Virus record (IMG/VR): IMGVR_UViG_2695420859_000010
Length of the DNA: 18,376 nt
Origin: a virus
Taxonomy: Duplodnaviria > Heunggongvirae > Uroviricota > Caudoviricetes
Direction: 5' to 3' (one strand)
Shown: in pieces, positions 901 through 5,230 of the stretch
Layout of the letters: each line of letters begins with the position of its first letter
Numbering within the stretch: the first letter of the stretch is position 1
Notes under the pieces: model-generated
Database searches by the model: none
What the model was told of the DNA's origin: nothing
What the model saw: the letters and a program-made list of their open reading frames with translations, nothing else
Translations under genes and position numbers: made by a program

Positions 901-1032
901 ATGTCAGACAAACTCATAACGCTGGCGAAGATCCTCTGTGTAATTGTCGGCATTTCATTTTCACTAATGCTGGTTGCTCTTTTTCTTTCCATGGCCTGGA
1001 TGATGTTGTCTTCGTCGGGGTTGCTGGGGTGA
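901..1032 (+). CDS. Hypothetical small membrane protein (43 aa)
   Basis: ATG at 901 preceded by GAAGGGAGG. Protein [43 protein letters not shown] is essentially a single transmembrane helix. Its end overlaps the Rz start. Confidence 0.4.
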
Positions 1033-1502
1033 ACATAAACCGAATGCTTTCCGCGTTTATCGTTATTCTGCTGGTGGCCTGTGGTGCGCTGTGGATGGCA
1101 ACAGACCATTACCGTGATAACGCGATTACCTACAAAGCGCAGCGCGATAACAAAGCCAGTGAACTGAAGCTGGCGAACGCAACCATTACTGATATGCAGG
1201 TGCGCCAGCGCGATGTTGCTGCGCTCGATGCAAAATACTCGAGGGAATTAGCCGATGCGAGAGCTGAAAATGAAACTCTTCGCGCTGACGTTGCCGCTGG
1301 TCGTAAGCGCCTGCGGATCAACGCCACCTGTCCAGGCTCCGTGCGTGAAGCCCCCACCACCTCCGGCGTGGATAATGCAACCGGCCCCCGACTGGCAGAC
1401 ACCGCTGAACGGGATTATTTCACCCTCAGAGAGCGGCTGATGACGATGCACAAGCAACTGGAAGGGGCACAGGAATATATCCGTACTCAGTGCCTGAAAT
1501 AA
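1029..1502 (+). CDS. Rz: Rz i-spanin (inner-membrane spanin subunit)
   Basis: 157-aa ORF with N-terminal TM segment then a coiled-coil periplasmic domain; the [14 protein letters not shown] and [15 protein letters not shown] motifs match lambda Rz. GTG start at 1029; an ATG at 1044 is an alternative. Confidence 0.85.
1255..1440 (+). CDS. Rz1: Rz1 o-spanin, outer-membrane lipoprotein embedded in Rz in the +1 frame
   Basis: Signal peptide with lipobox (LPLVVSAC), then a proline-rich mature region ([26 protein letters not shown]) very close to lambda Rz1. Lies wholly inside Rz in another frame. Confidence 0.8.
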
Positions 1503-1852
1503 GTTTTGTTGATGCGCCGTATCGTCGCTGTATTCCCTCATTAACAGAGACCGCAGCCCGACAGGGAGACTCCTCTGCGCGAGTGTGCGGGGATAATCAA
1601 AAACGATACACACCGGGGTTTACCGTGTTAACGGAGCGCGGCGTTGTCCCCTCATAGTCGCCTGTCCGGTGCGATGGTGGAAGAAGCCGGATGTTTATCA
1701 CTATTAATTGATGACACAGAAATGGATTCATTGAATTTCAGCACGTTTTTGTATTCGTGTTATTGAACATCTGTTTATTTTACTTTTAACATATTGATAA
1801 TAAAAAGAGCTGTAAATCTTTAGATGAGTCGATTTTGTCCGGGGAAGTTCAA

Positions 1853-1993
1853 ATGGATTTTATGCTGACGGTTTCTGGTGTGGTTATCCTGTCCATTGCT
1901 TATACTGCAGATAAATATGGCTGCCATTTGTTATCACGTATTGGCGCTTATTGTTCGTTGATGCTGATTTTCTCGTCGCTTTTTTTTGAGTAA
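1853..1993 (+). CDS. Hypothetical 46-aa hydrophobic peptide in AT-rich moron
   Basis: ATG at 1853 with GGGGAAG a few nt upstream. Translation MDFMLTVSGVVILSIAYTADKYGCHLLSRIGAYCSLMLIFSSLFFE has two hydrophobic segments. Lies in a segment far more AT-rich than its flanks. No recognised homologue. Confidence 0.25.
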   Translation: MDFMLTVSGVVILSIAYTADKYGCHLLSRIGAYCSLMLIFSSLFFE

Positions 1994-2125
1994 GTTATAT
2001 TAATTATAACAAATAATTTTCTGTGTTATTTTTTCAGGCTATCCCGTCAGAGGGGAAGCCTGTACTGCCGGGGAGCGAATGGAAAACTGATGTGTCCGGT
2101 AACTGCGTGTTCTGTGAACACCATG

Positions 2126-2311
2126 TTACTTAATTATGTAATTCATACCCGAACTCTCTGTTGACAGCCTTCTTCTGCAGGCTTCAATAACCCACGCTGA
2201 AAAGTTACTGGACCCTTTATGCTCAAGGGCGATGTTGATCTGTTCAATCATGTGATTGGGGAAACGGATATTGCGGGTTGTGGTTCTGCGGGTCCGGTTT
2301 TTCGATGACAT
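2126..2311 (-). CDS. DUF3950-like small DNA-binding protein, probable ribbon-helix-helix fold (YlcI-like)
   Basis: Minus-strand ORF starting at the internal ATG (MSSKNRTRRTTTRNIRFPNHMIEQINIALEHKGSSNFSAWVIEACRRRL...). Basic N-terminus, short beta-strand and two helices typical of Arc/CopG-like proteins. I recall similar small proteins next to the terminase genes in DLP12-type prophages. Only minus-strand gene in the window. Confidence 0.65.
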   Translation of the reverse strand: MSSKNRTRRTTTRNIRFPNHMIEQINIALEHKGSSNFSAWVIEACRRRLSTESSGMNYIIK

Positions 2312-3008: not shown

Positions 3009-3572
3009 GTGCTGACAACGCAAAAACGAAAATTTGCGCTGGCGCTCATGTCCGGGAAAAACAAAACAGCGTCAGCCATTGCCGCCGGTTATTCGGCGAA
3101 GACCGCCAGGGTTAAAGGCTCGCAGCTGGCAAAAGATCCGGAGGTGCTCGCGTTTATAGCCCGTAAACAGTGCGAAACGGTGGAGATGGATGAGGTTCCT
3201 GTTTACCGGCAGAAAAAATCAGAGCAGGAGGATAAACCCCGTCGCCGTGAGGTGGCTGCAATACCACAGCCGGACGAAAACAATCCGGAGATGCCTCCGC
3301 CCGCGGTGATATCTCATGGTATTGAATATATGGAGGATGGTCTTCCCGATCCGGTGAAAGCTATGGGGCAGATCCTGGTGGAAAACCTGATAATTGACCC
3401 GAAACTGGCACTGGATGCGGCCTGGCGACTGGCGCAGTTCACACACCATAAAAAAGGCGATGCCGGTAAAAAATCGGCAAAAGGTGATGCCGCGAAAAAA
3501 GCGGCTAACCGTTTTGCGGTGCCACCACCTCCCCGACTGGTGGTGAATAACCAGAATGAGGAAAGCGGATGA
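3009..3572 (+). CDS. Terminase small subunit (P27-family-like)
   Basis: 187-aa ORF, GTG start after GGGAGGAGG. N-terminal HTH-like region (KRKFALALMSGKNKTASAIAAGYSAKTARVKGSQLAKDPEV) typical of phage small terminases. Stop overlaps the TerL start (ATGA). Confidence 0.8.
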   Translation: MLTTQKRKFALALMSGKNKTASAIAAGYSAKTARVKGSQLAKDPEVLAFIARKQCETVEMDEVPVYRQKKSEQEDKPRRREVAAIPQPDENNPEMPPPAVISHGIEYMEDGLPDPVKAMGQILVENLIIDPKLALDAAWRLAQFTHHKKGDAGKKSAKGDAAKKAANRFAVPPPPRLVVNNQNEESG

Positions 3573-5230
3573 TACCTGTATGGAGCACGGCATGTCCGGA
3601 CTGGGCAGAGCGCCTGAAAAAGGGACTGTCGATTATTCCGGCTCCGATTTATCCGGACCAGGCTGCACATGCCCTGGCGATTTTTAAACAACTGCGAATT
3701 GTGGATGCACCGGGTAGCCCGACATTCGGGGAGTCCTGTGCACCGTGGGTGTTTGACCTGGTGGCGGCCCTGTTTGGCTCCTACGATGCGCAGACCGGTG
3801 TTCGCCATATCAAGGAAGTGTTTATCCTTATCCCCAAGAAAAACAGTAAGTCCACGCTGGCCGCGGGGATCATGATGACGGCGCTGTTACTGAACTGGCG
3901 GCAGGCGGCGGGCTACACCATTCTGGCCCCGACCGTGGAGGTGGCGGCTAACGCCTTCAACCCTGCCCGGGATATGGTACGACGGGACGATGATCTGGAT
4001 GACCTCTGTCAGGTGCAGACACATATCCGGACCATCACCCATCGGGTGACGGACACCACCCTGAAGGTGGTGGCAGCCGATCCGAATACGGTGTCCGGTA
4101 TCAAGTCCGTGGGGACACTGATTGATGAACTGTGGCTGTTTGGCAAGCAGTACAAAGCGGAAGACATGCTACGTGAAGCCATCGGCGGGCTTGCCTCCCG
4201 TCCGGAAGGATTTGTGGTGTACACAACCACCCAGTCGAATGAACCGCCTGCCGGGGTGTTCAGACAGAAACTGCAGTATGCCCGGGATGTCCGTGACGGC
4301 AAAATTCATGATCCGCACTTTCTGCCGGTGATTTTTGAGCATCCTCCTGAAATGGTGGAAAGCGGGGCTCACCTGCTGATGGAAAACCTCGCCATGGTCA
4401 ATCCGAATCTCGGTTATTCGGTGGATGAGGCTTTTCTGTACCGGGAGTACCGTAAAGCCCGGGAGGCTGGTGAGGAAGCATTTCGTGGCTTCATGTCAAA
4501 ACACGCCAATGTGGAAATCGGTCTTGCCCTGCGTTCTGACCGCTGGGCGGGCGCGGATTTCTGGGAGCAGCAGGGCAGGCGCGTCAGCCTGGACGATATC
4601 CTGCAGCGCGCTGATGTGGTGACGGTGGGGATTGACGGCGGGGGCCTGGATGATCTGCTGGGAATGTACGTGACTGGCCGTGACAGGGAAACCCGCGAAT
4701 GGCTGGGCTGGGGCCATGCCTGGGTGCATGAAACCGCGGTGGTCAGACGGAAGAGTGAGGCATCCCGGTTTCAGGATTTTGTGGCCTGTGGAGACATGAC
4801 GATTGTCCGTCGGGTCGGGGATGACACGGCGGAAGTGGCGGAGTATGTGCGTCGTATTCATGAGGCTGAGTTACTGGATCATATCGGTATTGACCCGTCA
4901 GGTGTGGGGCAGATTCTGGATTCACTGGCGGAAGCCGGGATCCCCGATGAGAGTGTGGTGGGGATAAGCCAGGGCTGGAAGCTGGGCGGGGCCATCAAAA
5001 CCACCGAGCGCAAACTGGCTGAGGGAGTGCTGGTGCATGGTGGTCAGCCACTGATGGCCTGGTGCGTTGGCAATGCCCGGGTGGAGCCTAAAGGTAACGC
5101 CATTCTTATCACCAAACAGGCCAGTGGACGGGGAAAAATTGACCCGCTGATGGCGCTGTTCAATGCGGTCTCCCTGATGTCCCTTAACCCGGAACCGAAA
5201 AAGAAAGAATATGTGGTTTTTTTCATATAA
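3569..5230 (+). CDS. Terminase large subunit
   Basis: 553-aa ORF with a Walker-A-like ATPase segment (ILIPKKNSKSTLAAG) and a C-terminal nuclease-like region; translationally coupled to TerS. Confidence 0.9.
   Translation: MIPVWSTACPDWAERLKKGLSIIPAPIYPDQAAHALAIFKQLRIVDAPGSPTFGESCAPWVFDLVAALFGSYDAQTGVRHIKEVFILIPKKNSKSTLAAGIMMTALLLNWRQAAGYTILAPTVEVAANAFNPARDMVRRDDDLDDLCQVQTHIRTITHRVTDTTLKVVAADPNTVSGIKSVGTLIDELWLFGKQYKAEDMLREAIGGLASRPEGFVVYTTTQSNEPPAGVFRQKLQYARDVRDGKIHDPHFLPVIFEHPPEMVESGAHLLMENLAMVNPNLGYSVDEAFLYREYRKAREAGEEAFRGFMSKHANVEIGLALRSDRWAGADFWEQQGRRVSLDDILQRADVVTVGIDGGGLDDLLGMYVTGRDRETREWLGWGHAWVHETAVVRRKSEASRFQDFVACGDMTIVRRVGDDTAEVAEYVRRIHEAELLDHIGIDPSGVGQILDSLAEAGIPDESVVGISQGWKLGGAIKTTERKLAEGVLVHGGQPLMAWCVGNARVEPKGNAILITKQASGRGKIDPLMALFNAVSLMSLNPEPKKKEYVVFFI

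Follow-up and report, generated by a model that had tools for sequence, protein, structure and literature searches.

The window analysed here is a stretch of 18,376 nucleotides and corresponds, as judged by its open reading frames (ORFs) and their Pfam matches, to the late region of a lambdoid prophage. The lysis cassette comprises the endolysin gene (14–547), two tiny hydrophobic ORFs (671–886 and 901–1032), the Rz spanin gene (1029–1502, plus strand; Pfam Phage_lysis, 6e-50), which ends the cassette, and the Rz1 gene embedded in Rz (1255–1440), whose equivalent ORF in the prophage L088 gives the Rz1 Pfam hit. One of the two tiny ORFs encodes 71 aa with a hydrophobic C-terminal half and the other approximately 43 strongly hydrophobic residues; they match phrog_1115 and phrog_4906—PHROGs of unknown function—and may be membrane components of the lysis cassette. 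Rz is followed by a GC-rich non-coding block at about 1505–1700 (about 185 nt, 1513–1698) and then by an AT-rich variable insert at 1699–2147, which reaches from this conserved block into the body of a YlcI/YnfO gene (2126–2311, minus strand; Pfam DUF3950, 1.3e-19; NCBIfam YlcI_YnfO_N). The genes of an HNH endonuclease (2353–2718), the small terminase (3009–3572) and the large terminase (3569–5230) come next. The insert carries the ORF under study, which lies on the strand of the lysis and terminase genes, starts 351 nt past Rz and is convergent with the YlcI/YnfO gene, as the initial annotation had described for a minus-strand RHH-like gene.

The insert stands out by composition and by its distribution among related phages. 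The GC content is 0.31 to 0.39 over approximately 1650–2100 and 0.52 to 0.57 on both flanks. Phage vB_EcoS-569R3 represents the empty site, with window position ~1698 joined straight to ~2148. The Stx1a phage Stx1_14040 carries a different, unrelated AT-rich insert at the same junction, and phage JLK-2012 a TonB-like gene as cargo. Because of this empty site, the other cargo in related phages and the distinct GC content, the segment fits a moron by position and composition, and the earlier placement of the ORF in a moron holds. The moron concept reportedly goes back to Juhala and Hendrix in 2000. The corresponding slot is occupied by bor in lambda, by borD–ybcV–ybcW beside ylcI in DLP12 and by cspI–ynfN–gnsB–ydfO beside ynfO in Qin. 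The GC-rich block at 1513–1698 is highly conserved across phages carrying different cargo and is probably the widespread part of an 861-nt query that matches 1939 records. No unusual RNA fold was found in it (z = −0.15), and on this value its candidacy as a structured RNA was rejected. An ORF called in this block by the old Sakai annotation, ECs1537, is gone from the current RefSeq record.

The ORF extends on the plus strand from the ATG at 1853 to the TAA at 1991–1993, and its 46 codons translate into the peptide previously quoted, MDFMLTVSGVVILSIAYTADKYGCHLLSRIGAYCSLMLIFSSLFFE. E. coli O157:H7 Sakai encodes the identical protein in its prophage Sp6 as ECs1538 (ECs_1538, NP_309565.1), with the ATG at Sakai position 1561112. 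An alternative in-frame TTG at 1835 would add six residues and yield 52 aa. The plausible Shine–Dalgarno (SD) sequence pointed out before, GGGGAAG, is located at 1841–1847, 5 nt upstream of the ATG. The peptide features hydrophobic stretches at approximately residues 3–18 and 26–45 with ADKYGCH in between; the two hydrophobic segments of the initial annotation are, hence, real, yet they are no more than the base composition predicts. AlphaFold2 (AF2), given a four-sequence family alignment, models a helix at residues 2–21, a turn and a helix at residues 25–44 with a mean pLDDT of 91.5, a value to be read in light of the program's tendency to draw hairpins for any hydrophobic 46-mer. In fold searches, a 46-residue helical hairpin gives uninformative matches. 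ECs1538 was also predicted as an inner-membrane protein with two transmembrane helices (S9 Table of Hücker et al. 2017, PMC5597208). The 3′ end of the ORF contains a T8 homopolymer (1980–1987), the length of which differs among genomes: a T9 tract leads to a 45-aa form ending in SSLFF, seen on 998 contigs; a contraction consistent with T7 leads to an end in SSLFLSKLY, found on 207 contigs; and a longer T tract gives a 51-aa form. Length changes of the ORF are restricted to this run and affect the last residues alone, and the variation of the C-terminus is homopolymer slippage. The same run was considered as the terminator of a small RNA starting from a conserved block upstream of the ORF and was rejected, as it has no adjacent hairpin (z = −0.7). 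An upstream ORF of 14 codons, MSRFCPGKFKWILC, at 1824–1868 on the plus strand overlaps the start of the main ORF in a different frame; its stop codon is lost in one allele (A′, see below), which opens a 45-codon overlapping frame, and it is without conservation in another (B).

Neither the length nor the hydrophobicity of the ORF exceeds what is expected by chance. The coding strand of the AT-rich segment is T-rich, with 164 of 426 bases being T. Among 5000 dinucleotide-preserving shuffles of this 426-nt segment, 43% hold an ATG-initiated ORF of at least 46 codons (P = 0.43). The GRAVY score of the peptide is 1.11, compared with 1.22 ± 0.33 for stop-free translations of the shuffled ORF DNA (P = 0.63). 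A T-rich coding strand on its own gives rise to peptides rich in Phe, Leu, Ile and Val, and a reading frame of this length with two hydrophobic helices is what such a composition yields. Evidence for a gene must, therefore, come from comparison and from expression data.

Of 5426 complete E. coli genomes, 734 carry the 436-nt segment, in ~788 copies altogether; all copies are at least 95% identical except for one with 77% identity. The wider 861-nt region is matched in 1929 genomes. The exact 46-aa protein is found on at least 1000 contigs, and further copies come from IMG/VR (80 loci), metagenomes (58 loci) and phage records searched by tblastn (2 records). One phage record leaves the ORF unannotated. 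All copies of the ORF are of E. coli, as judged by 5.8 billion clustered proteins, a profile search of 1.84 billion representatives, IMG/VR and metagenomes; species-representative genomes of other species gave 0 matches for the insert or the ORF. Three alleles are distinguished: A, the type of the window; A′, which differs by S14F, C24Y, L36V and E46D; and B from strain SHP24, with an amino-acid identity of 74% to A. No further alleles were found among species representatives, IMG/VR, metagenomes and phage records. The peptide and its allele B return nothing or noise in Pfam, NCBIfam, PHROGs, PADLOC and the sequences of the PDB, with Pfam and NCBIfam lacking a match even at E ≤ 1; Rfam gives no match at gathering score and noise alone at E ≤ 10. 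The profile search revealed no remote relative among the 1.84 billion representative proteins. Three long proteins from this search were rejected as homologues, for they are tandem-repeat translations with scores summed over the copies. Hence, the profile searches proposed for finding a family left the ORF without one in Pfam, NCBIfam, PHROGs, PADLOC and Rfam, and in this respect the initial annotation, which did not recognise the peptide, stands. The ORF itself, however, has been annotated as a hypothetical protein since the Sakai genome—as ECs1538, NP_309565.1 and, by PGAP, WP_000347013.1. A text search of the literature gave no match for the peptide or ECs1538, and the peptide sequence is absent from the supplements of a cryptic-microproteome preprint, an EDL933 TSS paper and an EDL933 translatomics paper.

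The reading frame is kept in all three alleles, so that related sequences do conserve it. Start codon and frame are retained in 11 of 11 ORF haplotypes obtained from 147 sequences, with ATG to GTG as the sole start-codon change; these haplotypes, sampled from DNA, carry no internal stop or frameshift. Broken forms are rare and confined to clusters of one to three member sequences. The other five frames are closed in allele A, in allele B or in both. Alleles A and B share 82% identity over the ORF, compared with 68% in the 5′ leader, 62 to 65% in the 3′ part of the insert and 77% in the upstream part. Within the leader of only 68% identity, GGGGAA is retained in three of four alleles and CAAATGG in four of four. 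The SD sequence of the Sakai allele appears to read GAGGAAG, going by its in-frame upstream translation MSEEVQ. The pairwise dN/dS of A versus B is approximately 0.3. This pair alone is not significant (P about 0.07 to 0.12), with differences of 8:6:10 by codon position; upon random placement of the same 24 substitutions, as many synonymous codons are obtained in 10% of trials, as mild a BLOSUM loss in 7% and an open ORF with its start codon in 34%. In the pooled events, 17 of 33 substitutions are synonymous and 16 non-synonymous, against an expected synonymous fraction of 0.31 (binomial P = 0.012). When these substitutions are translated in the two remaining forward frames, 8 of 30 and 9 of 31 are synonymous, and three and two more involve stop codons. 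The close haplotypes differ by four synonymous changes, one T18I and one ATG-to-GTG change at the start. The ADKYG loop, LLSRIGAYC and LIFSSLFF are invariant, and helix 1 takes conservative changes. These patterns point to a modest but real purifying selection on the protein, which seems strongest at the loop and the second helix.

A promoter-like element lies upstream of the ORF. The block 1769–1808 is 95% identical between A and B, compared with 68 to 77% in the neighbouring DNA, and contains a 35-nt run (1773–1807, plus strand) that is invariant between these two alleles. This run bears a −10-like GATAAT at 1796–1801, which is invariant in all four sequenced alleles, although a simple consensus scan did not call a plus-strand promoter at 1773–1807. 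For ECs1538, a BPROM promoter with an LDF of 8.00 was published at "248" (S4 Table, PMC5597208); this entry is ambiguous and denotes either 248 nt upstream or position 248 of a 300-nt search window, the latter of which would fall on the GATAAT. The same table lists an SD ΔG of −3.6 and the machine-learning call "real" (S4 Table, PMC5597208). The conserved block also shares DNA with a promoter-like site of the minus strand at 1788–1816 (TTTACA-17-TATGTT), which is directed away from the ORF; the block could, hence, serve divergent transcription.

Published data from uninduced Sakai cells include both transcript and ribosome coverage of the ORF. ECs1538 is among the 250 shortest annotated genes with an RCV of at least 0.25 in LB (Hücker et al. 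2017, PMC5597208). In LB at 37 °C, it has 57.6 RPKM of RNA and 26.1 RPKM of RIBOseq reads, with an RCV of 0.46 and a coverage of 0.98; in BHI, the values are 32.7, 7.3, 0.23 and 0.81, and in BHI with 4% NaCl at 14 °C, they are 2.1, 0.6, 0.29 and 0.13 (S2 Table, PMC5597208). Hence, ECs1538 passes the authors' translation thresholds (RPKM ≥ 1, coverage ≥ 0.5, RCV ≥ 0.25; PMC5597208) in LB. Its mean counts in BHI are low, with 7 RNA and 4 ribosome reads (S7, PMC5597208). The same-strand upstream genes feature less RNA in LB: 8.4 RPKM for the holin gene ECs1530, 10.1 for ECs1536 and 3.0 for ECs1537 (PMC5597208). ECs1537 is a plus-strand ORF equivalent to window positions ~1493–1711. The RNA level is, thus, 19-fold higher at ECs1538 than at ECs1537 and rises between ~1711 and 1853, which argues that the insert, at the conserved block with GATAAT, has a promoter that is active in lysogens without induction.

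The ribosome signal continues beyond the stop codon. Two ORFs on the plus strand just past it, XECs147 (~1997–2161) and XECs148 (2023–2133), were reported as novel translated genes in Sakai; they have 19.2 and 17.9 RIBOseq RPKM, compared with 26 for ECs1538, and both pass the thresholds (Hücker et al. 2017, PMC5597208). The two ORFs overlap in different frames, with XECs147 continuing the frame of ECs1538 two codons past its stop. Since the footprint density is similar past the stop, the RIBOseq signal is not frame-resolved and does not fall sharply there; the signal of XECs147 and XECs148 more likely stems from ribosomes on the 3′ portion of the ECs1538 transcript than from two extra genes. 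In published ribosome profiling, a check proposed by the initial annotation, the ORF is, hence, above the thresholds in LB, but with low counts and with a similar density past the stop. The 3′ region of the insert (1994–2125, plus strand), which is overlapped by the XECs148 frame, is structured (fold z −2.9) with a hairpin at 2035–2062 (CAGGCU…AGCCUG); its hairpins are not kept in allele B. It contains no canonical U-tailed terminator, and a scan of the insert gave a single weak terminator-like site at 2107–2121. FindTerm likewise gave no terminator for ECs1538 (Hücker et al. 2017, PMC5597208). The whole putative plus-strand transcript shows no unusual folding (z = −0.6).

On the opposite strand, a perfect extended −10 motif, TGTTATAAT, is located at 2011–2003, 10 nt past the stop codon, and is directed antisense into the ORF. 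The sequence TGNTATAAT occurs once in the 18-kb window, with 0.19 occurrences expected by chance. The motif is allele-specific: It is replaced in allele B and removed from A′ by a 10-nt deletion, and the ORF is kept in both. Of 200 shuffles, 197 fold better than the putative antisense RNA across the ORF (z = +1.8), for which no terminator was found. The search for an antisense RNA suggested by the initial annotation has, hence, brought up one promoter motif, though one that is lost in two alleles and would give rise to an unstructured RNA. A co-inherited antisense RNA gene—the defining feature of a type I module—was not found for this ORF, and Pfam, NCBIfam and Rfam contain no toxin or antitoxin family matching it. 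The ORF and the YlcI/YnfO gene occur independently of each other, which excludes a type II-like pair: 569R3, Stx1_14040 and JLK-2012 have YlcI/YnfO but lack this insert, the deletion remnant L088 has kept the ORF and lost YlcI, and 1929 genomes have the 861-nt region compared with 734 that have the insert. The convergence of the two genes, thus, does not extend to a functional link.

Because of the frame kept in three alleles, the synonymous excess and the RIBOseq reads on ECs1538, the ORF is probably a genuine gene of a small two-helix membrane protein. The reading preferred here, with a probability of about one half, is that of a moron gene with its own promoter, expressed at a low level in lysogens, whose product is a two-helix hairpin of the inner membrane acting for the benefit of the lysogen. 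It would be a young gene restricted to E. coli and carried by an AT-rich moron at the classical lambdoid cargo site between the Rz/Rz1 lysis genes and the YlcI–HNH–terminase block. Transcription in uninduced lysogens would start from a promoter inside the insert, for which the conserved block 1773–1807 with its GATAAT is the candidate; the ORF would, in addition, lie in the path of late transcription. Low-level translation would yield a protein of 45 to 46 residues, which probably forms a helical hairpin in the inner membrane, its short basic loop (K21, H25 and R29) facing the cytoplasm and both acidic ends lying outside. There, it would exert an activity beneficial to the lysogen, either superinfection exclusion or, by way of the conserved loop and second helix, modulation of a membrane protein of the host. 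The anatomy and distribution of the insert, the kept frame with its modest synonymous excess and the published RNA and ribosome coverage of the identical gene are observations; membrane insertion, topology and function are inferred, and for function, analogy is the sole guide because the ORF has neither homologues outside E. coli nor a domain. By such analogy, superinfection exclusion would be the single most likely activity, albeit with a chance well short of even, and modulation of a host membrane protein would come next.

The main competitor is a frame that is open by chance or has no function: Transcripts of the AT-rich insert would incidentally be sampled by ribosomes, and the peptide would have no selected role; in variants of this explanation, the transcript is a non-coding RNA or starts at spurious promoters of the kind common in AT-rich DNA gained by horizontal transfer. 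It was anticipated by the initial annotation as a chance ORF in AT-rich DNA and, although unlikely on balance, is still a live rival. The chance-level length (P = 0.43) and GRAVY score (P = 0.63) agree with it, as do the non-significant deep-branch test of A versus B, the very low read counts, the similar footprint density in two overlapping ORFs past the stop, the restriction to three alleles with no relatives elsewhere and a variable C-terminus, and the fact that conservation peaks in the 35-nt block upstream and not in the ORF. A frame without function, however, would not account for a pooled synonymous excess specific to the frame of the ORF (P = 0.012), for an SD sequence and ATG kept inside a leader otherwise 68% identical, for 11 haplotypes free of stops and frameshifts with broken forms rare next to intact ones on at least 1000 contigs, or for an ORF better conserved than the rest of the insert. 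A narrower account places the origin of the gene in the moron DNA itself, as a recently born (de novo or overprinted) microprotein already recruited in lysogens for a specific task, for instance to keep the DNA of competing phages out or to gate an inner-membrane protein of the host via the invariant loop and second helix; it is regarded as distinctly improbable. In a variant of the gene-birth account limited to the common allele, the antisense extended −10 motif would make the locus a nascent type I-like module.

Two further explanations assign the ORF to known functional classes, and both are very improbable. An accessory of the lysis cassette acting in the late phase, which would be expressed by read-through of the late operon and might, for instance, tune the timing of the holin or spanin, would be in keeping with the strand shared with the lysis and terminase genes, the position 351 nt after Rz and the other tiny membrane ORFs of the cassette at 671–886 and 901–1032. 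It is at odds with the foreign base composition of the insert and its absence from phages with the same lysis-to-terminase gene order, with an uninduced expression 6- to 19-fold above that of the upstream lysis-region genes, and with the lack of a holin, antiholin or spanin match in PHROGs and Pfam; relatives have a class II holin annotated at another place. A type I toxin, with its mRNA kept in check by an antisense RNA that the extended −10 promoter at 2011–2003 would supply, is the least probable of all. The small hydrophobic peptide, the prophage location and a perfect TGnTATAAT, unique in the window and located 10 nt beyond the stop codon on the other strand, speak for it, and it was one of the functions initially put forward. 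This promoter is, however, absent from allele B and deleted in A′ with the ORF kept, the antisense strand is unstructured and without a terminator, and no family in Rfam, Pfam or NCBIfam is matched. A single helix is usual for type I toxins, and hok, tisB and zorO have long folded leaders; the AF2 prediction for the ORF, by comparison, has two helices, and its leader would measure only ~45 nt if the conserved block is the promoter. In addition, the mRNA is covered by ribosomes in growing cells. The view of the product as a toxin under the control of an antisense RNA is, hence, not supported.

Among known systems, the morons of lambdoid phages in the region from Rz to cos and terminase—lambda bor and the cargo of DLP12 and Qin—are closest: They share with the present insert the discrete AT-rich DNA between genes adjacent in related phages, the expression of their own in a repressed prophage and the slot beside a YlcI/YnfO-type gene. 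The cargo differs in that it is a single 46-codon ORF without homology to Bor or to the K-12 cargo genes, and compared with lambda bor, the ORF is on the strand of the late operon and bor on the opposite one, and the insert is without a clear terminator. HK97 gp15, T4 Imm and P22 SieA are small inner-membrane superinfection-exclusion proteins, and HK97 gp15 is a moron product made in the lysogen. The ORF product resembles them as a small membrane protein encoded by a phage or prophage, but is far shorter, has no sequence or profile similarity to them and matches no known defence or exclusion family in PADLOC and PHROGs. The type I toxins Hok/Gef, TisB, Ldr, Ibs, ShoB and ZorO are similar in size, in hydrophobicity, in being partly prophage-borne and—for the window allele—in the antisense promoter motif. 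They differ in having a conserved antisense RNA gene and a family to match, and the ORF differs from them in its predicted two-helix hairpin and apparently short leader. MgrB, AcrZ, KdpF and MgtS are chromosomal small membrane proteins that tune larger ones and have defined partners. The ORF product shares with them a length of less than 50 residues, one or more membrane helices and conserved short motifs possibly suited for helix–helix contact, but is accessory, phage-borne, without homology to them and without a known partner. The ORF probably encodes an uncharacterised, lineage-restricted moron microprotein of a familiar kind, the small membrane proteins of prophage morons.

What had been known of it is the annotation of ECs1538 since the Sakai genome and an entry in a published translatome table, to which no function, family or phenotype is attached. 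If functional, it adds one more tiny membrane protein given by prophages to their hosts, with carriers making up approximately one-seventh of E. coli genomes, including O157:H7, O111 and other Shiga-toxin-producing lineages. Its narrow range of three alleles in one species would then make it a tractable case of gene origin in AT-rich cargo DNA, and, should the recent-birth account be true, a case in which the birth of a gene on a mobile element can be dated. With expression evidence that is weak, the practical gain at present is mainly that the toxin–antitoxin reading is closed off.

Two observations concern the neighbourhood of the insert. In L088 (3141–3500), an allele-A′ prophage, a deletion has removed the YlcI gene, the HNH endonuclease gene and the 5′ part of the small terminase gene and left the ORF intact. 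It was considered as an independent second context for the cassette and rejected as such, since the deletion fuses ~2100 to the 3′ part of terS; L088 is a decaying prophage that retains its cargo. Directly 5′ of the small terminase gene, the window features copies of ATGTTAAC(TGGC) in both orientations (2809–2938)—a palindrome at 2809–2830 and further copies at 2884–2899, 2906–2917 and 2925–2938—and G/C homopolymer palindromes at 2720–2778. These elements are plausibly terminase-binding or cos-region repeats.
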